The notes: a model not told the origin generated them from the sequence alone. A stretch of DNA of 64,000 nucleotides from Dehalococcoidia bacterium (GCA_041653995.1 JBAZEK010000001.1:1030613-1094612), one strand, 5' to 3'. Positions 5,138-43,397 are shown, counted from the stretch's first letter. Numbers and translations: made by a program.

Positions 5138-7201
5138 ATGGTGACAATGCTGAGGCTCTGCATAGCCCTGATTATCATTATCGCATTGGTCCTGCCAGGA
5201 ACAGGTTGTATTAAATTGGGCAAACTGCCGGGAAAACAGGCCGCGGAAAATAAGACTGCAGCATCAGGCGTCACGGCCGGGGGAACTGCCGGACAGTCAG
5301 GATCACAGGCGCCGGACACGGCGGGCAATCAGCCCGGTCAGGGCGGACAACCGGGCGCCCAACCCTCCGGCCAGGAGGCACAGGTCATTACCGGCGGTGG
5401 TGGAGTTGCCGTTGCCAACTGGATCGGCACCTGGCAATGCGGCAACTTTAAAATGTATCTGAACCAGGCAGGTGACCGGGTAACTGGGTGGTACGAGTAC
5501 GAAAACAGCGACATCGAAGGCACTGCTACCGGCAACACTCTCACCGGTACCTGGACTGTATCAGGTGTTAAATATGGTTTTCAGATTGTTCAGTCCTCTG
5601 ACGGCAAATCCTTTTCCGGCCGTTATAACCAGGGAACTTCAAGCAATCAAGGTGGATCATGGTCATGCACAAGGATAAGCACGGCCATGCCCACTGCAAA
5701 ATCATCAGGAGAAAATTCCCAGGTAATCACCCAGGGAGGAGGCGTGGCCGTTGCCAACTGGATCGGCACCTGGCAGTGCGGCAACAATAAAATGTACTTG
5801 GACCAATCAGGAAATCAGGTGACCGGGTGGTTCGATTCTGAAAATAGCGATATTGAGGGCTTTGCCACAGGCAATACACTTGTGGGTACCTGGACCAAGG
5901 GCGGAGTCAAATATGATTTCCAACTGGATCAGTCGTCTGACGGTAAATCATTTGCCGGACATTTTCGCCAGGGATCATCAGGCGCATGGACGGGAGAATG
6001 GTTCTGTATACGCACCAGCAGCGCCAGACCTCCGGCGAAACCAGCCACATCATATCCCCCCTCAGCCATACAGACTGCAAGCTGGACAGGTACATGGGAA
6101 TGCAATAATTATAAAATGTACCTGACCCAGACAGGCAGCAAGGTGACCGGCTGGACTGAACTGGATAATGGTGACATCGAAGGCTATGCAACCGGTAACA
6201 CAATTGTCGGCACCTGGACACTCTCCGGAATTGAATATGATATTCAGCTAAACCAGTCATCCGACGGCAAATCCTTTACAGGCCATTACCGTCAGGGTTC
6301 ATCAGGCAATTGGGCAGGAAGCTGGCCCTGCACTTTTATAACCAACGCACAGCCTCTGCCAAAGTCCGCAGTTCGATCTCAGCCTGCACCGACAGCACCC
6401 CCCACAAGCTGGACCGGCACATGGCAGTGCGGCCAGAAACAAATATGGCTACTTCAGACGGGCAGCCAGGTCATTGGCTGGTATGATGAACAGAGCGGTG
6501 ATATTCAGGGCTATGTCACAGGAAATACACTGGTAGGAACCTGGGCGGACGCCTCGGGTGAAAAAGATATTCAGCTGTCCATGTCCGCAGACGGGAATGC
6601 TTTTTCGGGTCATTACCGCACCAGCCCTTCAGCAAGCTGGATCAGCCACTTCTCCTGCACGAAAAAAAGCGCGGAATTACCCGCACCCAAAGTAACATTT
6701 GATATACAGCCCGTAAGTATTACCAGGGGGATGTCCGCGCAGTTATCCTGGAGCACTATACTGGCTACTTCTGTAGATATTAAACCGGACATAGGTCCCT
6801 GTGGCGCTAATGGCAAAATAAATGTCAAGCCCGACGCAGACATCTCATATACATTGAGCGCGAGCAACCCATTTGGCGGATCTAAAGTAACAGTTCCCCT
6901 AAAGGTAACATCGCCGAACTGGAGCGGGGAATGGGACTGCGGAAGCTTTGGGCATATGATACTCACCCAATCCGGCAACCAGGTTAACGGAATATATACA
7001 TACCAGGGCGGTAAAATCAGTGGCTATGTTAACGGGAATAAGCTTGCAGGAACGTGGTCTGAGGACCCGACCCATAAAGCTCCTGATGATGCGGGTGGTT
7101 GCGAATTCACCCAGTCAGCAGATGGTCTTTCCTTTACCGGTTATTATGACTACGGGTTTTCAGGCGCCGTGAGTCCCTGGAACGGGAAAAGGATTAGATA
7201 G
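5138..7201 (+). CDS. secreted/membrane-anchored protein with five tandem ~105-aa Cys-pair repeats and one Ig-like domain
   Basis: 687 aa; N-terminal hydrophobic signal/anchor, Gly/Gln/Pro-rich linker, then repeats of W-x-G-T-W-x-C-G...M-Y-L-x-Q-x-G-x-x-V-T-G-W...D-I-E-G-x-A-T-G-N-T-L-x-G-T-W...Q-S-S-D-G-K-S-F-x-G-x-Y-R-Q-G-S-S-G-x-W-x-G-x-W-x-C; repeats also >80% identical at DNA level between copies 1 and 2. Confidence 0.7.
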   Translation: MVTMLRLCIALIIIIALVLPGTGCIKLGKLPGKQAAENKTAASGVTAGGTAGQSGSQAPDTAGNQPGQGGQPGAQPSGQEAQVITGGGGVAVANWIGTWQCGNFKMYLNQAGDRVTGWYEYENSDIEGTATGNTLTGTWTVSGVKYGFQIVQSSDGKSFSGRYNQGTSSNQGGSWSCTRISTAMPTAKSSGENSQVITQGGGVAVANWIGTWQCGNNKMYLDQSGNQVTGWFDSENSDIEGFATGNTLVGTWTKGGVKYDFQLDQSSDGKSFAGHFRQGSSGAWTGEWFCIRTSSARPPAKPATSYPPSAIQTASWTGTWECNNYKMYLTQTGSKVTGWTELDNGDIEGYATGNTIVGTWTLSGIEYDIQLNQSSDGKSFTGHYRQGSSGNWAGSWPCTFITNAQPLPKSAVRSQPAPTAPPTSWTGTWQCGQKQIWLLQTGSQVIGWYDEQSGDIQGYVTGNTLVGTWADASGEKDIQLSMSADGNAFSGHYRTSPSASWISHFSCTKKSAELPAPKVTFDIQPVSITRGMSAQLSWSTILATSVDIKPDIGPCGANGKINVKPDADISYTLSASNPFGGSKVTVPLKVTSPNWSGEWDCGSFGHMILTQSGNQVNGIYTYQGGKISGYVNGNKLAGTWSEDPTHKAPDDAGGCEFTQSADGLSFTGYYDYGFSGAVSPWNGKRIR

Positions 7202-9532: not shown

Positions 9533-9684
9533 TTCCAACCCTGTCAACGAAAATACTTTATCTATTTTAGCACAGCATCCAATCTGTCTATACCGGCCTG
9601 CAGCCGCGAATGCCATTAACCCGACCGATAGTATTTTTTGACTATTGTTATAAACATCAATATAATATATGATAATATGAGTAT

Positions 9685-10050
9685 ATGGTAATATATTCAG
9701 GGAGTAATCATTTGGCTGAATTGAAATTGGACCGGGTCACGCTGTATGAGTTTCATGCTCAGTTCTGCAAGACGCTGGCTGACGCCAATCGTTTGCTGAT
9801 CATCGCAGAACTTGTCGGTGGAGAGAAGTCTGTGACCGATCTGGCGCACAATCTGGGCCTCGGTCAGTCCAATGTGTCGAAGCACCTGGCGCTGATGAGG
9901 GAGCGCGGACTGGTGGAAACCAGGCGTGACGGCGCGTCCATCTACTACTCACTGTCGGACCCCAGAATCTTTAAGGCTATTGAACTGCTGGTGCAGGTTC
10001 AAACCGAACAGGTTGCCAGAAGGCATAGCCTTGCGCAGCACAGCCGCTGA
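9685..10050 (+). CDS. ArsR/SmtB-family metalloregulator-type transcriptional repressor
   Basis: 121 aa; winged HTH LAHNLGLGQSNVSKHLALMRERGLV. Confidence 0.8.
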   Translation: MVIYSGSNHLAELKLDRVTLYEFHAQFCKTLADANRLLIIAELVGGEKSVTDLAHNLGLGQSNVSKHLALMRERGLVETRRDGASIYYSLSDPRIFKAIELLVQVQTEQVARRHSLAQHSR

Positions 10051-10116
10051 CGCCGTACGGCGTAGTATCAGCTATGAACGTTGGATTTTAATCAAAAGTT
10101 AAGGAGGCTATTCGAA

Positions 10117-10596
10117 ATGGATAACCAGGCAGACGGGGTGACCATAATAGTAATGAGTGGCGACATGGATAAGATAATAGCTGCGTTCAATATCTCCATT
10201 GGCGCCGCAGCTCTGGGCAAAGAAGCTAATATGTTTTTCACATTCTGGGGCATCAAGGCCATTCAGAAGGGCAACCTGACCGGAGACAGTTTCTTCGGCA
10301 AGATGATGGGGCTTCTGAACCGCGGCGGCATTGATCGCATCGGCCCCTCCCGCTTCAACTTCTGGGGCATGGGGAAATGGATGTTCAACCAGATGATGAA
10401 AATGCATAAGATCACACCCATAGCCGAGCTGCGTCAAACCGCCATCGACCTGGGAGTCAAGCTTCTACCCTGCCAGATGAGTATGGAAGTAATGGAAATC
10501 AAAAAAGAGGATCTCATCGACGAGGCCCAGCCTGCCTGCGGTGTGGCCACCATGCTGGAAATGGCCTACCGCTCCAAGGCGACCCTCTTTATTTAA
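10117..10596 (+). CDS. DsrE/DsrF-like family protein (DsrE2-type)
   Basis: ATG 10117 nine nt after AAGGAGG; TIIVMSGDMDK...MFFTFWG pattern of DsrE2-like proteins that sit next to TusA. Confidence 0.6.
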   Translation: MDNQADGVTIIVMSGDMDKIIAAFNISIGAAALGKEANMFFTFWGIKAIQKGNLTGDSFFGKMMGLLNRGGIDRIGPSRFNFWGMGKWMFNQMMKMHKITPIAELRQTAIDLGVKLLPCQMSMEVMEIKKEDLIDEAQPACGVATMLEMAYRSKATLFI

Positions 10597-10606
10597 GGAG
10601 CATATT

Positions 10607-11059
10607 ATGTCAGTAGAAAATGAAGTAGTAATGACGCTTAACCTGGAAGGTCTCCTCTGTCCCATCCCGGTAGTTAAAGTCAGCAAAGCAATGCAGGACC
10701 TTCCCGTCGGGGGCGTGCTGGAAGCGACGGCCACCGACCCGGGCGTGCTTGCCGACATCCCCGCCTGGGCGCGCACCACCGGCAACGAGGTCATCAAGAT
10801 CGAACGAGAAGGCAAGCTGGTCAAATTTCAGATCCGAAGATTGAAATATTATACCCGCCATGATCGATCTATCGTTGGCTGTTCTCCTGGTCTCGTTGGC
10901 CGTTGCCCTGGCAGGCGTGGCGGTATGGATTTACCAGCTCTTCTCCAGGCCGAGCGCGTGCGATCCATCGCCCGGCAAGGGTTCGGACAAGCTGGGAGTA
11001 CTGTATGCCTTTACACTTGGCATGCTGCCGTGGAAGAAGGAAAGCGCCGGCCTGCATAA
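10607..11059 (+). CDS. TusA-like sulfurtransferase (CPxP motif); reading frame runs on without stop into next gene
   Basis: ATG 10607 after AAGGAG; N-terminal 80 aa is a canonical TusA fold signature (LNLEGLLCPIPVVKVSKAM...); expected stop near 10850 absent, frame continues 70 codons overlapping 10860..11504. Confidence 0.7.
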   Translation: MSVENEVVMTLNLEGLLCPIPVVKVSKAMQDLPVGGVLEATATDPGVLADIPAWARTTGNEVIKIEREGKLVKFQIRRLKYYTRHDRSIVGCSPGLVGRCPGRRGGMDLPALLQAERVRSIARQGFGQAGSTVCLYTWHAAVEEGKRRPA

Positions 11060-11504
11060 AATAGTCTATCTAAGGGGTATCTGCTTTCACATCGGCATTT
11101 TCGCCGGTATAGTGGCGCTAATACTTAGTATCTTCGGCATAGCGGCCGGCAGCACGTTGAACCTGGTGCTGAGCATACTGATGTGGATCGGCGCCGTTGC
11201 AGGCGTTACAGCAATAATATCACGCGCAACCGAAGCCAACCTGAGGGGGATCAGCCGCCCCGACGATTACATCTCGCCCGCGTTGATCACGCTCTTTATG
11301 TCCATGGGCGCGCTGCACGCCATGAACCTCGTCGATACCGTGTATTTTTATGCTGCCGCCAGCGTGCTGTGCCTTTACCTCCCCTGGAGCAAGGTCCGGC
11401 ACTGCGTTTACTTCTTCTTCATGCGCGGTAAGATCGGCGCGATGATGGGCCATCGAGGTCTGCTGGGCACGACGCAACGACAGACGAGGAAAGGAACACC
11501 ATGA
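10860..11504 (+). CDS. polytopic membrane protein, possibly NarI/DsrM/HdrE-like cytochrome b subunit
   Basis: 214 aa, about 5 TM helices; His pair 11 residues apart in TM2 (LHKIVYLRGICFH) reminiscent of di-haem NarI fold; 4-nt overlap with downstream Fe-S gene. Confidence 0.4.
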   Translation: MIDLSLAVLLVSLAVALAGVAVWIYQLFSRPSACDPSPGKGSDKLGVLYAFTLGMLPWKKESAGLHKIVYLRGICFHIGIFAGIVALILSIFGIAAGSTLNLVLSILMWIGAVAGVTAIISRATEANLRGISRPDDYISPALITLFMSMGALHAMNLVDTVYFYAAASVLCLYLPWSKVRHCVYFFFMRGKIGAMMGHRGLLGTTQRQTRKGTP

Positions 11505-12790
11505 GCGACAACGACACAGCCACATTAACACCGGCGAATCCGGCATCTACGGACGCCGATATGCTTGATAAGCAGCTGACCAGAGAGGTTGAAGCTGCGC
11601 TGGGCGGCTGCGTACGCTGCGGCCTCTGCGCCGAGTCCTGCCATTACTACTCCGCCCAGCCTCAACTTCAGAATATGCCCGTCTACCGGGGTGAGGCCGT
11701 GAGAAAATTTTTCCGCCAGGCCGGCAGCCGGGCGAAGGGATTATTTCATCGGCCTGCAAAGGCGAAAACCGATGTATCGTCCCTTGACACGCTGGCGGAT
11801 ATGGCCTTCGGCAAGTGCACCCTTTGCCGCCGCTGCACGGTGAACTGCCCTGTGGGAGTGGATACGGCGGCGCTCATGCGTACCGCACGCGCCATCGCCA
11901 CGGCCTCCGGCAAAGCGCCGGAGATACTGGTCCAGCTCGCCGATGCGGCCATCAGCCGCGGGGAGAACATGGAGCTCTTTCGCGATATGTTGCTGGACCG
12001 TTTCAAAGAGCTTGAGGTCGAGACACGCAACAAGATCAATGATCCCGCTTTTTCGATTCCCGTGGGTAAAAAAGGCGCCGATATGCTGTTCGTAGGCCTC
12101 TCGGGCGAGCACAGCATAGTGCCCCCCGCCATATTGTTTCATTACGCCGGGGCAAACTGGACACTCAGCCTGTTTGAGGCGTCCAATTATGGCTCATTCC
12201 TGGGCGACAGCGAGAGATCGAAAAAAATAGCTCAACGCATAATCGACGAAGCCGGAGACCTTGGTGTGAAAGAGGTTGTGATCGGCGAGTGCGGCCACGC
12301 ATATACGGTGCTGCGCTGGGAGGCGCCCAAGTGGTTCAAAAAAGCGCTGCCGTTTCGTGTCAGGAGCCTGATAGAGGTGCTGGCCGAGTGGATACAGAGC
12401 GGGCGGCTGATCCTCAATCCCGAGGCCAATCCCGATCCTGTCACATATCATGATTCCTGCAACCTGGGCCGCAACGGCGGCCTTCTGGAGGAGCCACGCG
12501 TTGTGCTGCGCGCTGCAGTCAAGGATTTCCGCGAGATGTACCCCAACAGGGAGGAAAGCTATTGCTGCGGAGGAGGCAGCGGCATGGTGGCCGTTTCCGA
12601 ATGGGAAGAACGGCGCATGCTGGCGGGCTTGCCTAAAGCCAGGCAGATCAAGGCCACCGGCGCTAAAATCGTTGTCGCTTCCTGCGACAACTGCCGTATC
12701 CAGCTTGGCGAGCTCAACGAGCGCTACAACCTGGGCATCAAAGTGACCGGCCTGGCCGACCTGGTTGTGAACGCCGTCGTCAAAAAATAG
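11501..12790 (+). CDS. HdrD/DsrK/GlpC-like iron-sulfur protein (two 4Fe-4S ferredoxin motifs + two CCG domains)
   Basis: 429 aa; CVRCGLCAESCHYY and CTLCRRCTVNCPV cluster motifs; C-terminal cysteine-rich CCG repeats (ECGHAY...; YHDSCNLGR...; CCGGGSG). Confidence 0.75.
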   Translation: MSDNDTATLTPANPASTDADMLDKQLTREVEAALGGCVRCGLCAESCHYYSAQPQLQNMPVYRGEAVRKFFRQAGSRAKGLFHRPAKAKTDVSSLDTLADMAFGKCTLCRRCTVNCPVGVDTAALMRTARAIATASGKAPEILVQLADAAISRGENMELFRDMLLDRFKELEVETRNKINDPAFSIPVGKKGADMLFVGLSGEHSIVPPAILFHYAGANWTLSLFEASNYGSFLGDSERSKKIAQRIIDEAGDLGVKEVVIGECGHAYTVLRWEAPKWFKKALPFRVRSLIEVLAEWIQSGRLILNPEANPDPVTYHDSCNLGRNGGLLEEPRVVLRAAVKDFREMYPNREESYCCGGGSGMVAVSEWEERRMLAGLPKARQIKATGAKIVVASCDNCRIQLGELNERYNLGIKVTGLADLVVNAVVKK

Positions 12791-12833: not shown

Positions 12834-12915
12834 GTCATTGCGAGGAACGTAGTGACGAAGCAATCCTGTACGTGATTGCGTATACACAAGATTGCCACGC
12901 TTCGCTCGCAATGAC
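12834..12915. repeat. MITE-like palindromic element, copy A (11-bp terminal inverted repeats GTCATTGCGAG/CTCGCAATGAC)
   Basis: 82 bp in 3' intergenic region; left 36 bp nearly identical to copy B at 16884. Confidence 0.6.
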
Positions 12916-16883: not shown

Positions 16884-16971
16884 GCGTCATTACGAGGAAC
16901 GCAGTGACGAAGCAATCTTGTGCCGTCATGCGCGTGAACAGGATTGCCGCGCCCTCCGGGCTCGCAATGAC
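16884..16971. repeat. MITE-like palindromic element, copy B
   Basis: 88 bp; GTCATTACGAGGAACGCAGTGACGAAGCAATCTTGT ... CTCGCAATGAC; lies between convergent gene ends. Confidence 0.6.
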
Positions 16972-31038: not shown

Positions 31039-31275
31039 TTACATGATGTAGGGCGTGCGGCAGCATTTAAGTGCAACACGATGAGAACATATGGTGGGCG
31101 ATACTGGATTTGAACCAGTGACCCCCTGTGTGTAAGACAGGTAAAAACCTTTAATTGACTGGAGCTTATTGATAATCTCTAGGGAAGCCTTACGTTGTCC
31201 TGAAAGAATCATGCTCAAATAGCTTTTACTGATACCTAATTCTTTGGCTAATTGACTCTGTGTTAACTTTTTCAT
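31039..31275 (-). CDS. XRE-family HTH protein whose C-terminal codons read through the tRNA-derived att repeat
   Basis: LTQSQLAKELGISKSYLSMILSGQRK HTH; last ~20 codons (GVTGSNPVSPTI) overlie the 51-bp tRNA-Val fragment. Confidence 0.55.
   Translation of the reverse strand: MKKLTQSQLAKELGISKSYLSMILSGQRKASLEIINKLQSIKGFYLSYTQGVTGSNPVSPTICSHRVALKCCRTPYIM
31092..31142. repeat. att-site direct repeat: 51-bp copy of tRNA-Val(TAC) 3' end
   Basis: TGGTGGGCGATACTGGATTTGAACCAGTGACCCCCTGTGTGTAAGACAGGT identical to 43144..43194. Confidence 0.85.
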
Positions 31276-31530
31276 TTATTTCACCCGCCTTTTTATATCC
31301 TTTAAGCCTGCGTTTCCAATTATCGGTAAATATTGGTACGACTTCTTCTGTCTTCCTTTTGCACTAAAGTTCCCCTGTGGTTTTCTCACAAAATGACAGT
31401 CTACCTCATCAATAAGCCATCTCCGTCCAATGTAGAGTGCATTAATCCGTCCCTCTGACAAAAGCTTACGAACCCGTCTCTCAGATATACCAAGCCTTTC
31501 TGCTGCCTGTGGAACCGTAAGTAGTTTCAT
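31276..31530 (-). CDS. excisionase-family (HTH_17/MerR-like) DNA-binding protein
   Basis: 84 aa; LLTVPQAAERLGISERRVRKLLSEGRINALYIGRRWLI matches excisionase/Xis HTH pattern; adjacent to attL. Confidence 0.6.
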   Translation of the reverse strand: MKLLTVPQAAERLGISERRVRKLLSEGRINALYIGRRWLIDEVDCHFVRKPQGNFSAKGRQKKSYQYLPIIGNAGLKDIKRRVK

Positions 31531-31823
31531 TCAATTACCTTCTATCATTTTAATATTATACCGTTATCGGAATAATGTCAAGTATAATTACAAGCTAAAA
31601 TATCTTTTCTTTTTGCCGCATTTTTCCATAATACTCCGCAGAATTTTTTCAAATCGTATTTAAATTAAGTTTTAAAAGTTCAAGAATGAGGGTTTATAAT
31701 ATGCATATAAACTGGAAGCATATGGAAGGAAGCACGATAGAAAGTTAGAACGTAAGCAAGCGAGTAAGCAAGAAGGAAAGCAGGCGAGCAGGGAAGCTAT
31801 GTTGCTTTCCTTTTTTTAATTTT

Positions 31824-32057
31824 TTGATTCGGAGGTACGAAATGACTGAAAACAAGGTCAAGGAAATTAGATTGAGCAAATGCATGAATCAGAGAGAACT
31901 GGCAGAGAGAGCTCATATCTGTCAAACAGCTATTTCAGACATTGAAAGGGGGGTAAGACTACCATGGAAAGCAGCGTCTGAAAAGCTTGCTATTGCATTG
32001 GGTGTCACAATCGAGGAATTATTCCCAAACAATCTTAGGGGAGGTAAAAATTGCTAA
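31824..32057 (+). CDS. XRE-family HTH regulator
   Basis: 77 aa; MNQRELAERAHICQTAISDIERG. Confidence 0.65.
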   Translation: MIRRYEMTENKVKEIRLSKCMNQRELAERAHICQTAISDIERGVRLPWKAASEKLAIALGVTIEELFPNNLRGGKNC

Positions 32058-32398
32058 ACAAAAATAGAACGTCTTTAAAGCTGGGAAACAAGAAAGTAGG
32101 CTACTTTGAAGGTGATAAATTCATCAAACCCGTAATCGGCTCAAAGCATCTGCTGAAATTTCCTTACCAAGCTTGGGCAATTGATGCCAAAGTATTTGAC
32201 GATGAAATTAAACCTAACGCCAATTATTTTATTGTAAGAGATAGGGAGTCGGGGCTTGAATATAGTTGTACGGTAAAGGACTTCGACAATTTAAAGCGAA
32301 CCATTAACAGAGGGTATGGTAAGCAGTACAGTCTATCTCTAAAACATTGGAAAATAGCAGCTATGGAAGACGCTGAAGCTTCCAGTAACGCAACATAG
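32051..32398 (+). CDS. hypothetical protein
   Basis: 115 aa ORF on island, AT-rich codon usage consistent with neighbours. Confidence 0.4.
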   Translation: MLNKNRTSLKLGNKKVGYFEGDKFIKPVIGSKHLLKFPYQAWAIDAKVFDDEIKPNANYFIVRDRESGLEYSCTVKDFDNLKRTINRGYGKQYSLSLKHWKIAAMEDAEASSNAT

Positions 32399-32579
32399 AG
32401 TAGTGCAGCACCCGTTTTAGTAGTTGGAGGTGCTGTGTAAAAATGGTATTAGACAGAAGGAAAAGGCTGATGGAGGAGGGTATGACTCGCCATGATATTT
32501 CAGGAGCCTACTTATTTAATCAATTCAAGTGAGTTGTAATAGATGGTCATACCTATTCGATGGTCTTAAGGAGGAAAAT

Positions 32580-33026
32580 ATGATTCAGGGCATAGAAAAT
32601 TATATAAATTTAACAGATACCAAGAATGAATGGGCAAAATTTCTAAATGGCTTTGAATGGCATTGGTTCTTTACTCTCACATTTGATAAAAAGGTAAGTG
32701 ATGACTTGGCATACAAGCAATTCTTTAGGTGGAAGAATTGGATAAAGAGTTCAGTAGGACACAGAATTTTCTATCTAATTATTCCTGAGCGTCCCAAGTA
32801 TAAGGGAGATAATACTCATATTCATGGATTTCTTAATGGTGTTGAAAATGAGAAACCCTACATATGGAGAAGGAAATGGGAGGCAATGGCAGGCTTTTCT
32901 CGGATTCAACCCTATGATAGTTCAAGGGGTGCAAGCTATTATCTAGCGGATAAAATTGTATTTAAAGAAGAGGATATTTATCATAGCAAAGACCTAAATA
33001 TGATAAAGATAAATACACTCAATTAA
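32580..33026 (+). CDS. putative rolling-circle replication initiator (HUH endonuclease, Rep-like)
   Basis: ATG 32580 after AAGGAGG; motif I FFTLTF, motif II (HUH) THIHGFL, candidate motif III Y-x-x-K in ASYYLADKIVFK. Confidence 0.5.
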   Translation: MIQGIENYINLTDTKNEWAKFLNGFEWHWFFTLTFDKKVSDDLAYKQFFRWKNWIKSSVGHRIFYLIIPERPKYKGDNTHIHGFLNGVENEKPYIWRRKWEAMAGFSRIQPYDSSRGASYYLADKIVFKEEDIYHSKDLNMIKINTLN

Positions 33027-33094
33027 ATCCATTATATATATCAATATGATTATTACTACAAACATCAATATTTATTTCTTTTACTTTTACTTTT

Positions 33095-33150
33095 CCTTAT
33101 GCCCCTTTTTTATTTTTGCCCCAAATATGAATTAAATATAAATATCTACA
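33095..33150. repeat. iteron-like repeat cluster downstream of rep (GCCCCTTTTTTATTTTTGCCCC ... AAATATAAATATCTACAA)
   Basis: GGGGCAAAAA(T/G)A(A/G)AAAAAGGGG-type motif recurs inverted at ~40250..40275; AAATATAAATATCTACAA recurs at 34199..34216. Confidence 0.45.
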
Positions 33151-33231
33151 ATTAATTGCATAAAATTGGGGCATAGGGAAAAAATCACATATAAAATTCA
33201 AATAGAAAGTCAGGAGGAATCAGTAAGTAAA

Positions 33232-33858
33232 ATGAGTACAATAATTTCAAAACCTACGACAATTCAAATTAGCATGCTTGGGACACATGCCTTTTGTGAA
33301 TATAGGATATATCTTGAGCTTGTTATGGGTTTTAAAGCACGAGGTACACCAGAAATGCTTGAAGGCACAAAAGCACACTCAAGGATAAATACGATGGCTT
33401 TCTTAACGAGAGATTCAAATATTAGCATTGAGGATGCGTTGCTCCAAGCAGAGTCAGACGGAAGAGAAATAACAAAAAGGAACGTACGGGTAACAGGTAA
33501 GATACTACGTGGGAATATCGATGAAATTCACATTGGGCCAAAAGAAATTACGATTATAGATGATAAAAAATGGGCAGAGCATTATCCATCATATAAAAAT
33601 CAAGTCTTTGGCTATTGCCTTGCGTTTAAAGAACAATACAACCCAAAGCAGCCGATATACGGTGCCATAAAGAATTATCAGTCTGGAAAGGAAGTCTGGA
33701 AAAAACAATTTTCAGTTTTGGAAGAGGAATATATAAACGGCATTGTTCAAAGAATACTGGGGATAATTCGTGAGGATATCACTCCAAAACCCATTGGTGT
33801 TAGAGAAGTATGCTGGCAATGTGGATTTAAAAATTACTGCAATGTAAGGACACGATAG
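33232..33858 (+). CDS. Cas4-like/DUF83 PD-(D/E)xK nuclease with 4-Cys Fe-S site
   Basis: ATG 33232 after AGGAGG; N-terminal Cys (HAFCEY), IDEI...IIDDKK (D/ExK), QVFGY (QhxxY), C-terminal CWQCGFKNYC (CxxCx5C). Confidence 0.6.
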   Translation: MSTIISKPTTIQISMLGTHAFCEYRIYLELVMGFKARGTPEMLEGTKAHSRINTMAFLTRDSNISIEDALLQAESDGREITKRNVRVTGKILRGNIDEIHIGPKEITIIDDKKWAEHYPSYKNQVFGYCLAFKEQYNPKQPIYGAIKNYQSGKEVWKKQFSVLEEEYINGIVQRILGIIREDITPKPIGVREVCWQCGFKNYCNVRTR

Positions 33859-33895
33859 CAAAATGGTGGAAAAAGGAAAAAGAAGAAACTAACTA

Positions 33896-34159
33896 CTATA
33901 CTGCCTTGAAACCCACAATAAAGTAATTTGATTTATCAAATATAAGTCTTATCTTGTGTTCTGAATTATCCTTGCCGGCCAGGGCAATTAAGAATGATAG
34001 CTTCTTTGGATTAGTAACTGTCTTAGAAATTGGACGATGGACAATAAAACCCTCAAGTTCAATCTTCACATATCTACAGCCAGTCTTCGGATATGGCAAA
34101 TCCTTCTCTTCCACAATATCTATATATTTGCATATGGCTGAATTTGTCCTTCTTGGCAT
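33896..34159 (-). CDS. hypothetical protein
   Basis: 87 aa ORF on island; no motifs. Confidence 0.3.
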   Translation of the reverse strand: MPRRTNSAICKYIDIVEEKDLPYPKTGCRYVKIELEGFIVHRPISKTVTNPKKLSFLIALAGKDNSEHKIRLIFDKSNYFIVGFKAV

Positions 34160-34526
34160 ATTTATTTCCTTTCTTCCCTTTTCCGCTAAATTTAAACTAA
34201 ATATAAATATCTACAAATTATTATATTAAATCCACAACCAAATTTGAATATGAATGCCACAGATAAATGGCGGAAAAGAAAAAGAGTCTTAGAGATATTA
34301 TTATTTTGTATTATTTTCTTTAATAGTCAGATAGCAAGTGTGGCTAAGGGCAATTTTACCTTTAAAAATATTGAATCTGGTTGTCATTTGTCTAGTGCTT
34401 TAAAAATAGAAAACCTTCACGTGTGAGAAATGCCAGTAGCACGTGTATTAGAAGCGGCATTTTAAATAAAATCTTAGCCCAAAGTCATAGCAAATATAGA
34501 TTGTTGCATGCGTCCTTTTAATACGA

Positions 34527-34610
34527 TAGAATACGGTCAATGTAGTGAGGCTGGGGAGATGAAATATTTACTTGCTTGTTTCATAGCACTATTCGTTATA
34601 TCAGCCTGTG
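34527..34610 (+). repeat. 84-bp module (5' UTR + RBS + lipoprotein signal peptide MKYLLACFIALFVISAC) duplicated identically at 40435..40518
   Basis: exact identity of ATAGAATACGGTCAATGTAGTGAGGCTGGGGAGATGAAATATTTACTTGCTTGTTTCATAGCACTATTCGTTATATCAGCCTG; weaker similarity extends ~80 bp upstream. Confidence 0.8.
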
Positions 34611-36502
34611 CATCTCAAGTCCATGTTGGTGACCAAGCTCCAAACTTCACACTGACAGATATAAATGGTAAACGTATTAGTCTGCAAGATTTTCGTGGCA
34701 AGCAGGTTGTTCTTTATCTTTGGTTTTTATATTGTCCTGAATGTACAGAAGACCTTGCTGAGATTCAAGAGTTGAATAATAATAGTGACGAAAGAGTCAT
34801 TAAGTTCCTAACCATTAACCCAGAAAATTCATCAAAAGACGTTGCGGATTTTTTCACTAAAAATGGATATAGTTTCCCAGTTTTGTTTGATTTAGATGGA
34901 AGTATTTACAAGCAATATAATTTACGACCTCGGTCTGCACCCTACACAATAATTATTGCTCCTGATGGAAAGATTAACAATATTACAGTGGGGAATCTTC
35001 ATTATCAAGGTGGTTTAAAACGGTTAATTGGAGATAACGTAACATCCTTCAGTCCAAGTGCACAAACTCAAAAGACTCCAATAATTATCGTACCCAGTTT
35101 ACAATCTCATGGTGTCGATGAACTTGCTTATGTATCTAGCGAAACGAACACGAACTCTATATATGTCGTGAATGCAAACGGGGAATATATTGCTAACTCA
35201 TCTGGAAAAATGGATGCATTATACCATGTTAGTTGGTCGCCAAACGGAGATAAGATTATTTTTGAAGTGGTTAAAGATATCAATATAGACCAGAGAAATA
35301 TGACCCTTATTTCTTCGTCTGATATTTATTCTCTTGATATTAAAGACCATGAAGAGCGTAGACTTACTTCAAATTATCCGTATAGCAATTGTTCTCCCAC
35401 ATGGATTGAAGACGATAAAATCGTATTTTATTCAACAAGGGGAAGTTCGTATGGCAGTTTTTTACAAAATATATACATCATGAACGCAGACGGAAGTAAT
35501 CAGATAAATTTAACTAATTGTGCAGAGAATGTACCTATGGTATTAGAACCAATATTATCGCCTGACCACTTGTCTGCAGCATATATTACGGGTAAGTTAT
35601 TCGATGAAGATATATATGTGATAAACCTAGTGAATGGAAATAAATTTGAAATAGGCCATAATCCAACATTTGCACCCTGGACTTGGTGGTCTCCAAACAG
35701 TAAACAGATAGCGTATATATCTGCCTCTCTAAACGGGGGGCCTGAATCATTTTATCTCTACGATGTCGAAAAACAGAAACCGATAAAATACTATGATAGC
35801 CCTCAATCTTATTCTATTATGGAAATAGCATGGTCGCCAGACAGTAACAAAGTCGCTATTTTTGAAAAACCGCAGAGCTTGTATGTTTTAGATTGTCTGA
35901 GTTCCAAGTTTACAAAACTTGATGGGATATGTGACTGGGTAGTAGAGATGAAATGGATACCTAATAACCAACAAATAGCCATTATTGGTGACAGGTTTAC
36001 AAACAGAAACTTGTATGTAATTGATATTGGTGAGCAGAGTAAGCATAAAATCAATCCAGAGGGAACGGCAGTCGAGTCGTATCGATGGTCAACTGATAAT
36101 ACAAGAATCATTTATTGCTTAGATGATGGATATCTTTACACAACTTTCCTACCCAACTTAAATACCATAAAACTAATGCAACTTAATAAAAATACGATAA
36201 AAGGGTTAGCTTTGTCACCAGACGGTTTATTAATCGCTGTTGCTCTGAGTGACGATACTCTAACTGTAATTTCATTAAACAATAACAAGGTGTGCTTGTT
36301 AACTAATGATTATTACAATATTGGAGCAATTTCTTGGTCGCAAAACAGTAACATACTTGCATTTGAATACGGAACTTTATGGGATAGTCCGTTTGTATGC
36401 AGTAACATTCAAATCATCAATTTCGAAAACGAGGAACAGTTCATTAAATTAGATAAACCAATCTCAGGACGCTCTCCAATTTGGGCGAGAAAGGAAAAAT
36501 AA
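34559..36502 (+). CDS. exported lipoprotein: TlpA/ResA-like thioredoxin-fold domain (CPEC) + TolB-like beta-propeller
   Basis: lipobox ISAC; APNFTLTDINGKRISLQDFRGKQVVLYLWFLYCPEC redoxin; C-terminal repeated W-S-P-D/N-G/S blades (SWSPNGDKIIF, AWSPDSNKVAIF, RWSTDNTRIIY, ALSPDGLLIAV, SWSQNSNILAF). Confidence 0.75.
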   Translation: MKYLLACFIALFVISACASQVHVGDQAPNFTLTDINGKRISLQDFRGKQVVLYLWFLYCPECTEDLAEIQELNNNSDERVIKFLTINPENSSKDVADFFTKNGYSFPVLFDLDGSIYKQYNLRPRSAPYTIIIAPDGKINNITVGNLHYQGGLKRLIGDNVTSFSPSAQTQKTPIIIVPSLQSHGVDELAYVSSETNTNSIYVVNANGEYIANSSGKMDALYHVSWSPNGDKIIFEVVKDINIDQRNMTLISSSDIYSLDIKDHEERRLTSNYPYSNCSPTWIEDDKIVFYSTRGSSYGSFLQNIYIMNADGSNQINLTNCAENVPMVLEPILSPDHLSAAYITGKLFDEDIYVINLVNGNKFEIGHNPTFAPWTWWSPNSKQIAYISASLNGGPESFYLYDVEKQKPIKYYDSPQSYSIMEIAWSPDSNKVAIFEKPQSLYVLDCLSSKFTKLDGICDWVVEMKWIPNNQQIAIIGDRFTNRNLYVIDIGEQSKHKINPEGTAVESYRWSTDNTRIIYCLDDGYLYTTFLPNLNTIKLMQLNKNTIKGLALSPDGLLIAVALSDDTLTVISLNNNKVCLLTNDYYNIGAISWSQNSNILAFEYGTLWDSPFVCSNIQIINFENEEQFIKLDKPISGRSPIWARKEK

Positions 36503-36527
36503 GAAATTTCAAAAATGGAGACTGAAT

Positions 36528-36824
36528 ATGACTGGCGAATTGGGAAATTTTGTTATCGTCATGGGATTACCCTGTTTAGGAGCGCTGTTAATAGCTTTTT
36601 GTTCATTACCAACCGATAAATGGACAATAAAACACACTTTTATGTTGGTGGGAACTTCACTAATTTTTATTAGCTTTATTTTGCAAGCATATCAGATTAT
36701 TGATAAATACCCTGATAAAAATGAATATATATTTGGATGGTGGATTGTCGGTTTAGCTACCGTTATCATGGCTATAATAGGGCAAATTATTAGAATCAGA
36801 TACGGTAAAAGTTGGTTCCAATAG
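36528..36824 (+). CDS. small 3-TM membrane protein
   Basis: 98 aa hydrophobic ORF directly after lipoprotein gene. Confidence 0.4.
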   Translation: MTGELGNFVIVMGLPCLGALLIAFCSLPTDKWTIKHTFMLVGTSLIFISFILQAYQIIDKYPDKNEYIFGWWIVGLATVIMAIIGQIIRIRYGKSWFQ

Positions 36825-36920
36825 GATAATAAAATAGTGGGAAAGGAAAGAGAAGGAAATTTAATTAGCTATCTATATTTAAGATAAGAGTGACTTATAG
36901 AACTTCATTGAGGTTGGGAG

Positions 36921-37451
36921 ATGCAACAACAGTATCAATGCCCTAATTGTAGGTATCCAGTTGCTTATGGGAATAATTTCTGTGGACATTGTAGACAACA
37001 ACTAATCTGGCAACAATTAATGCCACCTTCACCACCAGTACACCATCAGCAAACACCACAAGGCATTATTGGGAAATCACACGAGCAAAACACTTCTGGA
37101 CAAGGTGGTCAATCAATAATACCCGATGAAAAGCGTATTAAACTTCCAAAACTCAATATTCGTTTCGACTTTGAGTTGTTTCAAGCAATTGAGGACAATG
37201 ACCGTAAACTGGCTGAACAGCTCAAAGCAAAATATGGGGATGATGTTTATAATTCCAATTTTTATAACCTGCTTAGTATCGAAGACGCTAACTCAGTAGA
37301 CTCACTTCATCTTAAACTAGTATCAGTTGAAAAAATGAATTTCAATGATATTTTATGCGAAAGTATCAAAATAGAGACTGAAAAAGTACGCAAAAGGATA
37401 GAGGAGCTTGAGAATATAAAAAATTTACGCAACGGGATTGAGGAAGTGTAA
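36921..37451 (+). CDS. zinc-ribbon (MQQQYQCPNC...CGHC) + coiled-coil protein
   Basis: 176 aa; N-terminal CPNC-x11-CGHC; member of the window-wide MQQxYxCPxC family. Confidence 0.55.
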   Translation: MQQQYQCPNCRYPVAYGNNFCGHCRQQLIWQQLMPPSPPVHHQQTPQGIIGKSHEQNTSGQGGQSIIPDEKRIKLPKLNIRFDFELFQAIEDNDRKLAEQLKAKYGDDVYNSNFYNLLSIEDANSVDSLHLKLVSVEKMNFNDILCESIKIETEKVRKRIEELENIKNLRNGIEEV

Positions 37452-37461
37452 GGAACTGACT

Positions 37462-37505
37462 AAACCCCTGAAACTGGCAGCTCGAGTAAGAAAAATGGCG
37501 GGAAA
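37462..37505 (+). repeat. ~44-bp intergenic repeat (AACCCCTGAAACTGGCAGCTCGAGTAAGAAAAATGGCGG), second copy 39411..39455
   Basis: ~90% identity; each sits between a stop codon and next start; in second copy ATGGCGG is the start of the HEPN-like gene. Confidence 0.6.
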
Positions 37506-37511
37506 GAAAAT

Positions 37512-39368
37512 TTGATTTATATGTTATGGGATGATACGTATCGTAAAGATGCAGCGGAGTATGAAATCTATCTGCGTATGCATCATAAAGAAAAAAACGA
37601 TTACGAGAAGCTTTTATCTAATCTTGAACGTGAGTGGTCAGAAAAATCAGTTAAAGAAGAAAACTACATATCGCTTAAAAAGGAATACACAGCGAAACTA
37701 CAGGAAACAAAGAAGTACATTTCAAAGCTGAAATTCCAGATTACAGCACTCATTAAAAAATGTAATAAAGACATAGATAAAATCGATAGCCAAATTGAAC
37801 AAATTAAATTGCGGCACAAAGTTGGTGAATATTCAGAGGAGAAACTCAAAGAACTATTATCACCATCTGAAACAGAAAGAAGGCAATTTGAATCCTTAAT
37901 AATCGAACTGAAACGCATACATGGCTTGAAATATATACCTAAACCAACTACCGATGATGTTGTATCAGAAACAGAACCGAGTCAGCCTAGAAGGTCTCCT
38001 ATCCCAACGTCATCTACTTCTATTTCAACAGCTGAAGAGCAAGCCCCCGAAATATCAGCACCAATGAGTTTTGAAGAACCGCCTCCTATTTTGGTACCTG
38101 CTGTATTTAAAAAGTCTTCACCTGTAAGAGTAAAGAAGAGTCTGTGGATTATGGCTTCGATTACTATGTTTGTAATATTAATTCTCTGTTTTGTTATTTG
38201 GAATATAGAAGTGCATAAAAAGGTAATCCCTCAGATTGGAGACCAAGCTCCAAACTTCTCTCTCCCAGATATGAATGGTAAAACGGTTAACCTTCAGGAC
38301 TTTCACGGAAAGGGTGTTGTTCTTTACCTTTGGGACACATCATGTCCTTACTGCAAAAATGACCTTAGCTGGATAAATGAATTAAATGGCTGCACCTATG
38401 ACGAAGCAATAATATTTTTAACTATTAATATCTCAGATTCACGTGGAACAGCTATTAAATATTTTGAGGAAAATGGATATAGTATTCCCGTTTTAAATGA
38501 TATGCGTGGGACGGTTATTAAGCAGTATGTAAAGTACACCTTAGGCCATACGTATCCAGATACTATTCTTATTGGTTCAAATGGCCAGATTCGTAATGTA
38601 AAAGTCGGGCCCTTCCAAAGCAAGACTGAATTAAAAACATTTATAGAATCAGGTTTAACCCCCCGTTGGGATAATACTCCTCCACAAATTTATGATATTA
38701 ATCTTTCTAAGGCCTCTATTTTGAGTTGGAAAACGGATGAGGAAACACATAGTAATATACAAGGGTTTCGTAATAGTGTCGGAGGTGCTGGAGTCACTCT
38801 TGGTGAAAATTGGACAAGATATCATAGCGTAAATGAAACAGTTTGCACTAATGGCTACTATGACCAAATTCAAATCAACTCGTATGACCGCTGCGGTAAT
38901 TCTGCTTCAAAAGTTTTTACACTGCCCAACTGCATAAATTTAGGTTGTAGAGCTCCTGATTTCACAGCAACTTCAACTAATAATCAGGATATAACGCTGT
39001 CCGCAGTACCTAGCAAAATGACTCTACTTCACTTCTGGCTACTCGGATGTGGTGCATGTGAAAAGGAACTTCCATTAATCCAAAAACTATATTATGAGCG
39101 TCCTAGAGAAGAACTTGAGATATTGGCTGTGAATGTTAGAGGTGACATATACAGCATAAATGACTTCGTTACTGCAAATGGTTATAGATTAATTATTTTA
39201 CTAGATACAGAAGGCATAATAGATGCCGCCTATCATAATCCAAGGTTCCCCACAACCTTTTTATTGGATTGCAATAAGGTAATTATTAACAAGCATGACG
39301 GTGCCTTTCAAAATTATGAAGAAATCGTTGATTTTGTAGGTCAGTATCCAAAACTTCCTGGTAAATAG
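37512..39368 (+). CDS. bitopic protein: cytoplasmic coiled-coil, one TM helix, two periplasmic TlpA-like thioredoxin-fold domains (CPYC, CGAC)
   Basis: 618 aa; TM SLWIMASITMFVILILCFVIW; APNFSLPDMNGKTVNLQDFHGKGVVLYLWDTSCPYC; second redoxin LLHFWLLGCGACEKEL. Confidence 0.7.
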   Translation: MIYMLWDDTYRKDAAEYEIYLRMHHKEKNDYEKLLSNLEREWSEKSVKEENYISLKKEYTAKLQETKKYISKLKFQITALIKKCNKDIDKIDSQIEQIKLRHKVGEYSEEKLKELLSPSETERRQFESLIIELKRIHGLKYIPKPTTDDVVSETEPSQPRRSPIPTSSTSISTAEEQAPEISAPMSFEEPPPILVPAVFKKSSPVRVKKSLWIMASITMFVILILCFVIWNIEVHKKVIPQIGDQAPNFSLPDMNGKTVNLQDFHGKGVVLYLWDTSCPYCKNDLSWINELNGCTYDEAIIFLTINISDSRGTAIKYFEENGYSIPVLNDMRGTVIKQYVKYTLGHTYPDTILIGSNGQIRNVKVGPFQSKTELKTFIESGLTPRWDNTPPQIYDINLSKASILSWKTDEETHSNIQGFRNSVGGAGVTLGENWTRYHSVNETVCTNGYYDQIQINSYDRCGNSASKVFTLPNCINLGCRAPDFTATSTNNQDITLSAVPSKMTLLHFWLLGCGACEKELPLIQKLYYERPREELEILAVNVRGDIYSINDFVTANGYRLIILLDTEGIIDAAYHNPRFPTTFLLDCNKVIINKHDGAFQNYEEIVDFVGQYPKLPGK

Positions 39369-39410
39369 ATAATTTCTTGATATTAAGAAATCGAGGTGTA
39401 CTGGTCTGAA

Positions 39411-39455
39411 CCCCTGAAACTGGACAGCTTGAGTAAGAAAAATGGCGGAAAAAGA
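39411..39455 (+). repeat. second copy of ~44-bp intergenic repeat
   Basis: AACCCCTGAAACTGGACAGCTTGAGTAAGAAAAATGGCGG. Confidence 0.6.
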
Positions 39456-39951
39456 AATGCAACAGGAGGAGCATCCCCTAAATATGGGGAAGCTACTTGT
39501 GAATTTCCAATCACTTGAGATAGCTCTCCGTCTATTTCTTTATAATGATGAAATTGCCTCTAGAGTTTCATCTCCTCAGGCGGTAAACCTAAATGCTATG
39601 AATGCGGGGGATATAGTAGCTGAAAATGCGTTCACAAACTATGATAGTCTAAGTCAACTCATTGATAAATATAATAACCATCCCAACATCATATCGACAG
39701 GTCTAACCATTGATAAGACTTTAGTGGACATACGTGATGCAATAGCTCATGGAAGAGTCGCTGGAGTCACTCCTTTGCTTGTGCCTCCTTTAAAACTAAT
39801 GAAGTTTGATAAACCAAAGAACAAAAGTGTGAAAGTAACATTTAGCGTTTTATTGACAAGGGAATGGTTCATTCTAGAGATGGCTAAGGTTCAAGATGCA
39901 GTTTTTAAAGTCTTTCAAGCTATCCAAATAATACAGAGTGCTAAGACATAA
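39442..39951 (+). CDS. hypothetical protein with HEPN-like R-x4-H motif
   Basis: 169 aa; IRDAIAHGR contains Rx4H; predicted all-alpha. Confidence 0.4.
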   Translation: MAEKEMQQEEHPLNMGKLLVNFQSLEIALRLFLYNDEIASRVSSPQAVNLNAMNAGDIVAENAFTNYDSLSQLIDKYNNHPNIISTGLTIDKTLVDIRDAIAHGRVAGVTPLLVPPLKLMKFDKPKNKSVKVTFSVLLTREWFILEMAKVQDAVFKVFQAIQIIQSAKT

Positions 39952-40434
39952 GTGGTGCCCTCTGAAATCGCTCTGAGGGGCTGAAATCAGGGTGTTGCAT
40001 ATTGAACATGACGGATTCCACCTGTCATTACTATTCCAGCTTAATTAGAGCCTTTAAAGTATTAAACAGTAAAGGTAATAACTCTACTTCCTTTCCCTTA
40101 AGCCCCTTTATTATTTCTTCGCCTAAGTTTCCGTTCAAGTGAATTATGTCGCTTTTAAGACCAACAAACGCTGGTACACCATAAACACGTTTACGTTCAA
40201 GCCAATTATGTCGTTTTGCATATATTATTTCCAGCTTAAATTAACTACAGAAAAATGGGGCAAAAAGAGAAAAAGGGGAATTATATATCAATTTATTGTC
40301 AATAATCTTTGAAATACTATTACTTCATCTGAGAGAGATGCCAGCAGCTAAGTGTAACGGCATTGAATTTTAAATAACTTCTCAGCCCAAAGTGGTAACG
40401 CATATAGGTCTATTGCATAAGTATTGTTCATATA

Positions 40435-40518
40435 ATAGAATACGGTCAATGTAGTGAGGCTGGGGAGATGAAATATTTACTTGCTTGTTTCATAGCACTA
40501 TTCGTTATATCAGCCTGC
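40435..40518 (+). repeat. second copy of 84-bp 5'UTR+signal-peptide module
   Basis: identical to 34527..34610. Confidence 0.8.
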
Positions 40519-41880: not shown

Positions 41881-41907
41881 AAGAAAATCAAAAGGGAGGT
41901 AAAGAAG

Positions 41908-42084
41908 ATGGTAGCAAATAAGAAGAAGTATTATGCAGGGGAATCAGCTAAAGTCTCTGGCAAATACAACGAATGCAGATTGGGCACAGGCAAAACAGGA
42001 GTAACAGCAAATGTCAAGAAGGGGGATACACTCCCACCACATAAAATAGGAGCTCATTGGGAGTTATCAAGAAAATCTAAATAA
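41908..42084 (+). CDS. small basic protein (58 aa), hypothetical
   Basis: strong RBS AAGGGAGG 8 nt upstream; MVANKKKYYAGESAKVSGKYNECRLGTGKTG...; not in ORF track (<60 aa). Confidence 0.35.
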   Translation: MVANKKKYYAGESAKVSGKYNECRLGTGKTGVTANVKKGDTLPPHKIGAHWELSRKSK

Positions 42085-43081: not shown

Positions 43082-43143
43082 TTCTTTTGTGAACTTTTTG
43101 TAGCTAACTTGTGAATATTGTGAAATTGAGCTGTAGTTTTCTT

Positions 43144-43219: not shown

Positions 43220-43226
43220 TGGGGAG

Positions 43227-43302: not shown

Positions 43303-43308
43303 ATAAAA

Positions 43309-43395: not shown

Positions 43396-43397
43396 CC

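Follow-up and report, generated by a model that had tools for sequence, protein, structure and literature searches.

What is encoded by a locus in which the genes for two sulfur-carrier proteins stand directly ahead of those for a membrane protein and an Fe-S protein? The question is raised by an uncultured Dehalococcoidia bacterium, in a stretch of 64,000 nucleotides (GCA_041653995.1 JBAZEK010000001.1:1030613-1094612) that we refer to as the window, with positions counted from its first letter. Here, at 9685-12790 (+), five co-directional open reading frames (ORFs) encode an ArsR-type regulator, a DsrE2-type protein, TusA, a protein with five transmembrane (TM) segments and a protein with Fe-S and CCG motifs. 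The Fe-S, membrane and DsrE2-type proteins are identical to NCBI proteins of a metagenome-assembled genome (MAG). An initial annotation of the window had named this five-gene set, and each member now has strong family or fold support. It had moreover likened the set to a DsrMK/HdrED-type module coupled to TusA/DsrE2, a likeness that is borne out by motifs, folds and synteny across phyla and from which a function may be proposed. We suggest, with moderate confidence, that the locus is a regulator-controlled operon for a two-subunit membrane thiol/(per/tri)sulfide oxidoreductase of the DsrMK/TmcBC/HmcEF/HdrDE design, with its own protein substrates co-encoded. The four genes that follow the regulator are referred to as the cassette.

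Do the carriers belong with the membrane and Fe-S genes at all? Look-ups of Fe-S protein homologues in Kryptonia, Thermoflexus and an Armatimonadota MAG returned the series DsrE2-TusA-membrane-FeS with its order unchanged in all. A genome scan with the membrane-protein profile, using one genome per species, returned 80 loci. With duplicates removed, and with the window locus and the three look-up loci included, the full cassette is present at 52 non-duplicate loci, hosted mostly by Anaerolineae and Dehalococcoidia (Chloroflexota) but also by Kryptonia, Armatimonadota and one MAG labelled Deltaproteobacteria. Every cassette hit comes from a MAG or a metagenome contig. A further 30 loci hold a paralogous membrane-FeS pair alone (group B). 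The linkage of TusA and DsrE2 to the membrane-FeS pair, which the initial annotation had left to a comparison of gene neighbourhoods, is thus real and conserved across phyla, and chance is excluded by the family E-values together with a gene order kept at 52 loci. Besides a regulator, no recurrent neighbour of the 52 full cassettes was found, and therefore the cassette is a self-contained module. In particular, a recurrent DsrC or DsrAB-like gene is absent up to a distance of 6 kb. Within the window, a 4-nt overlap, which had been claimed for the genes in general, exists only between the membrane and Fe-S genes (ATGA, 11501-11504). ArsR and DsrE2 are separated by 66 nt and DsrE2 and TusA by 10 nt.

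The Fe-S protein gave Pfam matches to Fer4_8 and CCG. Against NCBIfam it scored 260 bits with DsrK, 236 bits with TmcB and 226 bits with HmcF, compared with 52 bits for GlpC and 31 bits for GlcF, whilst LutA gave no match. Whether it sides with GlcF/LutA or with HdrD/DsrK had been posed as a check on the initial annotation, and the scores, with DsrK, TmcB and HmcF far ahead, place it on the latter side. Two [4Fe-4S] motifs (CxxCxxCxxxC) are present as predicted, at C37/40/43/47 and C106/109/112/116. The two CCG domains that had been read from the sequence reduce to one: a single intact CCG motif (C320-X34-C355C356G-X38-C395xxC398) coincides with the only Pfam CCG stretch, residues 314-402. An N-terminal CCG-like half is degenerate, retaining only C264 and H266 in a GECGH remnant, and residues 117-263 are free of Cys. 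The residues of the cluster motifs and of GECGH are each at least 94% conserved in 52 homologues. The same arrangement characterises DsrK, HmcF and TmcB, which have a single CCG (CXnCCGXnCX2C) and a strictly conserved Cys, linked to catalysis, in a T/GECGH motif, whereas HdrD and HdrB have two CCG (PMC10861901). Because its one CCG and GECGH match this signature, the Fe-S protein is of DsrK type rather than HdrD type. At E<=1e-30 it has 156 relatives among 1.84 billion representative proteins, and its cluster also contains P0252, P0256 and P0258, for which the DsrK model gives 235-269 bits. Judged by these sequence relationships, it is a distinct subfamily inside the DsrK/HmcF/TmcB group.

The predicted structure combines an HdrC-like ferredoxin domain with an HdrB-like CCG domain; the fold matches HdrB2 and HdrC, and the top structural match is EtfD. 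In a phmmer alignment all six non-cubane [4Fe-4S] ligands of M. smegmatis EtfD (9ojn_A) are conserved in the Fe-S protein. For the extra linear [3Fe-4S] (D1) cluster of EtfD, three of the four ligands are absent and C264 alone is kept. Could the cassette then encode a quinone-linked dehydrogenase of the EtfD/EMO, GlpC, GlcF or LutA/LldEFG type that is unrelated to sulfur, with the sulfur-carrier genes as coincidental neighbours? EtfD leads the structural matches of both subunits, with a shared fold and non-cubane ligand set, and CCG proteins work in many dehydrogenases. We nevertheless regard this as very improbable, given GlcF and GlpC scores of 31 and 52 bits and no LutA match against 226-260 bits for DsrK, TmcB and HmcF, the loss of the D1 ligands save C264, and the linkage to TusA and DsrE2 across phyla. 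Moreover, neither etfAB nor a dehydrogenase gene recurs nearby. EtfD itself (PDB 9OJN, PMC13083937) is one fused polypeptide with the extra linear cluster, a long C-terminal tail and ETF as its partner, whereas the cassette has two separate genes.

The membrane protein (214 aa) has five TM segments and a NarI-like fold, and its distribution of Lys and Arg fits an N-out/C-in orientation, as in NarI. Among the Pfam families that had been expected at this locus TusA, DrsE_2, Fer4_8 and CCG were matched; Nitrate_red_gam/NarI was not, the membrane protein having no Pfam match, PF02665 included, even at E<=0.1. Its sole NCBIfam family matches are weak, to TmcC (4.5e-7) and HmcE (3.8e-6), at 30 bits against a cutoff of 240. 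The profile of the membrane family had zero matches among PDB sequences, and hhalign of this profile with E. coli NarI gave a non-significant match of 33 columns. By structure, EtfD is again the top match.

What can be said of its haems? Three His residues, H66, H77 and H181, are invariant in the 52 cassette-linked sequences and in 29-30 of the 30 paralogues, and no further His is conserved. These were mapped onto NarI by a MAFFT alignment with the E. coli protein and two fusion relatives, anchored on FHIG, on the R-rich loop ahead of PDDY and on P-x-S-K/R-x-x-H; the mapping thus rests on sequence alignment. NarI has four haem-ligand His, H56 and H66 on TM2 and H187 and H205 on TM5, and two of the four are present in the membrane protein. 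H77 pairs with NarI H56 and H181 with NarI H205, which we take to be the proximal haem ligands, whilst NarI H66 and H187 have no His counterpart. The TM2 His pair of the initial annotation (H66, H77) is therefore invariant, as claimed, with only H77 matching a NarI ligand; H66 is placed ahead of TM2, in the cytoplasmic loop, and belongs to a highly conserved motif, PW-KES-x3-H. An assignment of H66/H181 as proximal and H77 as distal ligand was dropped after the NarI alignment. Conservation of the haem ligands is partial, since the proximal pair is kept and the distal pair missing, and the dihaem arrangement that the His pair had suggested was not supported. As the distal pair is absent, we suggest from the alignment that the membrane protein probably binds one proximal haem b via H77/H181. 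Cryo-EM of EtfD showed one proximal haem, ligated by His78/His241 (PMC13083937), and a one-haem variant of this architecture is therefore functional.

The two-subunit design, a NarI-like HdrE with HdrD as a fusion of HdrC and HdrB, is that of HdrDE of Methanosarcina. There, however, HdrD has two CCG and two non-cubane clusters (PMC10861901) where the cassette has one, HdrE is predicted to hold proximal and distal haems (EMO preprint) where the cassette has ligands for the proximal only, and CoM-S-S-CoB is the substrate and methanophenazine the donor.

The membrane and Fe-S subunits are one enzyme. That they act together follows from the ATGA gene overlap and from two fusion proteins: P0261 (670 aa) joins an N-terminal domain of the three-His membrane family to an Fe-S protein, and P0256 (661 aa), from the window's nearest cluster, joins an N-terminal four-His Pfam Nitrate_red_gam domain (49.7 bits) to an Fe-S protein. 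A third fusion bears on the substrate. In P0254 a relative of the Fe-S protein is extended at its C terminus by a Pfam DsrC domain (57.7 bits) from which the C-terminal Cys is missing; the fusion indicates that enzymes of this group pair with sulfur carriers of TusE/DsrC type. Another relative, P0255, has, judged by eye, a putative C-terminal response-regulator receiver domain.

Given the DsrC domain of P0254, the cassette might be an ordinary DsrMK/Tmc/Hmc module whose substrate, DsrC or another disulfide, is encoded elsewhere, with TusA and DsrE2 as a relay in the manner of TusA to DsrEFH to DsrC. DsrK does top the NCBIfam matches, and the single CCG with GECGH is common to DsrK. Moreover, the nearest Anaerolineae paralogues, those of group B, occur in DsrO/DsrP-like, cytochrome c and CobB contexts. 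The gene order there (L030 3733-11678; also L010, L012 and L014, all Anaerolineae) is a QrcC/DsrO-like Fe-S protein, a DsrP-like NrfD protein, a 650-715-aa protein with one CxxCH, the membrane/Fe-S pair and a CobB homologue (DsrN-like?), a gene set that is an Hmc- or DsrMKJOP-like complex. Yet the score of 260 bits falls short of the DsrK cutoff of 400, and the relatives that pass this cutoff, P0268 (451 bits) and P0311 (418 bits), share 32-36% identity with the window protein and were assigned to other clusters. Around the 52 cassettes there is no recurrent DsrC-like or DsrAB gene, and a four-gene order kept so strictly points to a dedicated unit of carriers and enzyme. The distal haem ligands are absent, whereas DsrM is a dihaem cytochrome b with His/His ligation of both haems (PMC10861901). 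We consider it quite unlikely, on this balance, that the substrate lies elsewhere.

How close is the cassette to these complexes? With the DsrMK of DsrMKJOP it shares a NarI-family cytochrome b and a cytoplasmic subunit with two cubanes, one CCG and the GECGH Cys, and in both the substrate sulfur would sit on cysteines of small carrier proteins, as we propose for the cassette. It differs in having ligands for the proximal haem only, in lacking DsrJOP, DsrC and DsrAB, and in having one-Cys TusA and DsrE2 in place of the two-Cys DsrC. Its likeness to TmcBC and HmcEF (of the Desulfovibrio TmcABCD and HmcABCDEF) is similar in kind: alignments of the Fe-S subunit to the TmcB and HmcF models run over the full length, and the single CCG and T/GECGH are the same. 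The scores, however, are far under the cutoffs (236 against 735, 226 against 750 and, for the membrane protein, 30 against 240), and the cassette has none of the cytochrome c, NrfD and periplasmic subunits whose context the group-B paralogues do have. In sum, the cassette does not qualify as DsrK, TmcB or HmcF by the curated cutoffs, nor as HdrD, yet it has their common working design.

What, then, are the proposed substrates? The DsrE2-type protein matches Pfam DrsE_2 (E=6e-40, 137 bits against a cutoff of 25) and scores 62.5 bits, below the cutoff of 210, with the NCBIfam DsrE2 equivalog NF047629. Its start is the ATG at 10117 behind AGGAGG, giving a 159-aa product that equals NCBI MFA5399786.1, and its active-site Cys, C119 (C131 in the numbering of a 171-aa ORF), is invariant in 51/51 sequences. 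The nearest solved structure is 2qs7 (E=3e-17), which has been named an archaeal DsrE2B (PMC11094781). TusA matches Pfam TusA (PF01206; E=3e-19, 69 bits against a cutoff of 28.6) and has the anticipated CPxP motif (C18-P19-I20-P21), of which C18, P19 and P21 are invariant in 52/52 sequences. With the NCBIfam TusA and YedF equivalogs it scores 39-42 bits, below the cutoffs of 78-79. Homologues of this TusA terminate at ...RRLK followed by a stop. At codon 81 (10847-10849) the window reads TAT, where L007 and three assemblies of the same population as the window (L088-L090) read TAG and L008 reads TAA; the single-base difference lies at 10849, T in the window and G in L007 and L088-L090. Because codon 81 is not a stop, the window ORF stays open to 11059, which adds 70 codons and creates a 200-nt overlap with the membrane gene. 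The stop loss is either an assembly error or a single-base variant of the strain.

Adjacent carriers of these families are known from two other settings. In sHdr clusters (PMC11094781, PMC4175335) TusA and DsrE2/DsrE3-family carriers likewise stand beside an Hdr-like enzyme with CCG motifs and non-cubane clusters, and 2qs7 comes from such an archaeal cluster. The sHdr enzyme, however, is a soluble HdrAB1B2C1C2 with lipoate-binding proteins, whereas the cassette lacks HdrA and LbpA and is of the membrane-bound HdrD/DsrK type. The YTD cluster (YedE-TusA-DsrE and conserved hypotheticals) of sulfur disproportionators also has adjacent TusA and DsrE-family genes in anaerobes. No YedE/YeeE transporter is found in the window cassette or recurs with the others, and the genes that accompany the carriers here encode a cytochrome b-like anchor and a DsrK-like Fe-S protein.

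How is the cassette controlled? The window ArsR matches Pfam HTH_5 and the ArsR/SmtB subfamily of NCBIfam (HTH_metalloreg), at 87 bits against a cutoff of 55. Its start was initially placed at the ATG at 9685; translation most likely begins instead at the TTG at 9712, behind GGGAG, as the resulting 112-aa product is called in three other assemblies of the same population. Upstream lies a putative strong sigma-70-like promoter, TTGACT-17-TATAAT (9638-9666), with 11/12 positions matched in a promoter scan. A 15-nt AT-rich inverted repeat, AATATATGATAATAT / ATATGGTAATATATT (9664-9678 / 9683-9697; 80% complementary, 4-nt spacer), shares positions with the -10 box and with the ATG first assigned to ArsR, and is a plausible candidate for the ArsR operator. 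The closest PDB relatives of this ArsR are SqrR (6o8k, 1e-16), then NolR and BigR; it scores 65 bits with the BigR model (cutoff 155) and 67 bits with the ArsR-type equivalog TsoR. Persulfide sensors of the SqrR/BigR type have a conserved Cys pair, C41/C107 in SqrR. In an ungapped alignment to 6o8k, the position of SqrR residue 41 is occupied by Ile40 in the window ArsR, and the C-terminal Cys is absent; the sole Cys, C28, is invariant in 39/39 cassette-linked homologues.

Elsewhere the regulator next to the cassette differs, being of MerR type in Kryptonia, ArsR in Thermoflexus and CsoR type in the Armatimonadota MAG. The Kryptonia MerR-type regulator (L001 5139-5591 (+)) has a C-terminal tail with 9 Cys. 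The CsoR-type neighbours (L005 5002-5310 (-), L026 6733-7233 (-), L077 5412-6017 (-)) have C-x29-C and lack the Cu-ligand His, a pattern that we take to be that of the persulfide sensor CstR. Judged from these residues, control of the cassette by sulfane sulfur is plausible in some lineages, the window locus aside. ArsR/SmtB, MerR and CsoR are, on the other hand, all classically metal sensors, and the cassette in L005 adjoins a copper ATPase operon. This raises the alternative of an operon for metal(loid) resistance or thiol stress, in which the Fe-S enzyme would perform general repair of oxidised thiols. Such a role seems highly improbable to us. Neither a metal transporter nor an arsenate reductase is a recurrent companion of the cassette, TusA and DsrE2 carry sulfur and are not metal-binding, and the Cu-ligand His that is missing from the cassette-adjacent CsoR-type proteins is retained in a second CsoR gene in the related locus L061, beside a copper ATPase. 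As identities for the cassette, YTD, sHdr, EtfD/EMO, GlcF/GlpC/LutA and metal resistance were rejected on scores, ligands and neighbours.

How might the enzyme work? We propose that the 214-aa NarI-fold protein would act as the anchor and exchange electrons with the menaquinone pool, probably through a single cytoplasm-proximal haem b on H77 and H181. In the 429-aa subunit electrons would pass via two cubane [4Fe-4S] clusters to one non-cubane [4Fe-4S] cluster in the CCG motif, beside the GECGH Cys. TusA (Cys18) and DsrE2 (Cys119), with one invariant Cys each, would stand in for DsrC at DsrK, presenting sulfane sulfur to the active site as a persulfide or as a TusA-S-(S)-S-DsrE2 mixed di-/trisulfide. 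The direction that we favour is reductive: menaquinol and carrier-bound sulfane sulfur would give reduced carriers (thiols) and H2S, the site of reduction being the non-cubane cluster together with Cys264. The purpose may be the oxygen-independent removal or respiration of intracellular sulfane sulfur. Our preference for this direction is by analogy with DsrMKJOP, for which it has been demonstrated: the complex has menadiol:DsrC-trisulfide oxidoreductase activity and sets sulfide free (PMC10861901). We propose that the reaction, with one proximal haem, would be electroneutral and not a redox loop. We tentatively advance the more specific claim, to which we give somewhat less than an even chance, that the cassette represents a hitherto unrecognised enzyme class, a DsrC-independent single-haem menaquinol:TusA/DsrE2-(per/tri)sulfide oxidoreductase for the quinone-linked, oxygen-independent reduction or reversible oxidation of intracellular sulfane sulfur in anaerobic Chloroflexota, Kryptonia and Armatimonadota.

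Several points weigh against this proposal. Gene content, cofactor motifs, folds, synteny and subunit fusions are shown, and from these the occupancy of haem and clusters, TusA and DsrE2 as substrates, the coupling to quinone, the direction, the physiological role and the inducing signal are inferred. The Fe-S protein lies under the curated cutoffs of DsrK (400, NF045796), TmcB (735, NF045724) and HmcF (750, NF045711), and the relatives that do pass the DsrK cutoff stand in other clusters. One-haem occupancy is deduced from His ligands that are absent, and the haem count is uncertain, since a distal haem can bind with one His (EMO preprint); moreover, the invariant H66 is not accounted for. 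The stop codon of TusA is lost in the window assembly. As the window ArsR is without the SqrR/BigR Cys pair, sulfane-sulfur sensing is unsupported at this locus. Finally, with menaquinol (about -70 mV) as the donor, the reduction of a persulfide may be unfavourable on thermodynamic grounds, an uncertainty that has also been stated for the DsrC trisulfide (PMC10861901).

Because the thermodynamics are uncertain, the opposite direction is a serious rival, which we rate as somewhat unlikely. Sulfide or sulfane sulfur delivered by TusA/DsrE2 would here be oxidised at the non-cubane cluster and menaquinone reduced, e.g. with thiols and sulfide converted to a persulfide or trisulfide, making the enzyme a minimal membrane counterpart of sHdr or rDsr/DsrMK. 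The oxidation of sulfide to sulfane sulfur with menaquinone is exergonic. EtfD, the closest structure, sends electrons toward menaquinone via one haem, and carriers of TusA and DsrE type are best documented as feeding the oxidative systems rDsr and sHdr (PMC11094781). Yet no DsrAB, sHdrA or LbpA recurs beside the cassette to carry sulfane sulfur on to sulfite, and a persulfide with no onward sink is a toxic species made rather than removed. Moreover, the Anaerolineae and Dehalococcoidia, which include many of the hosts, are mostly anaerobic heterotrophs and not sulfur oxidisers.

Has such a cassette been described before? We found no prior description in the searchable full-text literature, subscription-only literature being outside the search; the papers returned deal only with sHdr, YTD, DsrMKJOP/Dsr and EtfD/EMO. 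The cassette therefore seems to be undescribed so far. Enzymes of DsrK/HdrD type are known to act on the DsrC trisulfide or on CoM-S-S-CoB, and the known role of TusA and DsrE proteins is that of relays supplying DsrC or sHdr. If our proposal of a carrier-linked menaquinol oxidoreductase is true, DsrK-type catalytic subunits can act directly on TusA/DsrE-type carriers, and the substrate range of the DsrK/HdrD-type family would be widened by a DsrC-free pairing of carriers with a minimal membrane enzyme. In heterotrophs that are abundant and for the most part uncultured, it would also tie the menaquinone pool to sulfane sulfur bound to proteins, and under sulfide or polysulfide stress they would have an alternative to persulfide dioxygenase or NAD(P)H persulfide reductases that needs no oxygen. 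As a four-gene system it is small, and could be tested in vitro by the assays set up for DsrMKJOP.

Table 1. Coordinates of the operon and of the putative elements at its two ends, in the window.
Feature	Position	Strand	Basis and remarks
Promoter-like site and candidate ArsR operator	9638..9697	+	Promoter scan, inverted repeat; function putative
ArsR/SmtB-family regulator, 112 aa	9712..10050	+	NCBIfam HTH_metalloreg
DsrE2-type (Pfam DrsE_2) sulfur-carrier protein, 159 aa	10117..10596	+	Pfam DrsE_2
TusA sulfur carrier, 80 codons	10607..10849	+	Pfam TusA; ORF open to 11059
NarI-fold cytochrome b-like membrane anchor, 214 aa, 5 TM	10860..11504	+	Fold, invariant His
Cytoplasmic Fe-S catalytic subunit, DsrK/HmcF/TmcB type, 429 aa	11501..12790	+	NCBIfam, cofactor motifs
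Long imperfect hairpin just 3' of the operon	12834..12915	+	11-nt perfect outer arms, RNA fold

No intrinsic terminator was detected after the operon, the 82-nt hairpin that lies there (Table 1) having no T-tract. It has an RNA fold of -36 kcal/mol (z=-3.9), and the 11-mer of its arm, GTCATTGCGAG, is found again at 16961-16971 (chance expectation 0.03 matches). The hairpin may be a putative 3' end or stabiliser element, or a REP-like intergenic repeat. The window ORFs annotated beside the cassette, over 8 kb upstream and 4 kb downstream, are unrelated to it. At 5138-7201 a 687-aa protein with no Pfam match has an N-terminal hydrophobic segment and several repeats of ~95-100 aa (W-x-G-T-W-x-C ... 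V-T-G-W ... G-T-W).

Lastly, the window contains an island of ~12 kb and low GC (about 0.35) at 31080-43470. Its boundary is marked by a 51-nt perfect repeat of the tRNA-Val(TAC) 3' portion, at about 31.09-31.14 kb; the intact tRNA-Val(TAC) lies at 43144-43219 within a cluster of five tRNAs and is adjoined by a phage-type integrase, 42317-43081 (-). The island looks like an integrated mobile element. Its cargo includes a Cas4/PD-(D/E)XK nuclease-like protein (33166-33858) and three large AhpC/TSA-redoxin proteins, namely a fusion with a WD40-type beta-propeller (34508-36502), a duplicated redoxin (37512-39368) and one with fn3 (40468-41880). Redoxins of the AhpC/TSA type together with a Cas4-like protein (33166-41880) are an unusual set for a mobile element.

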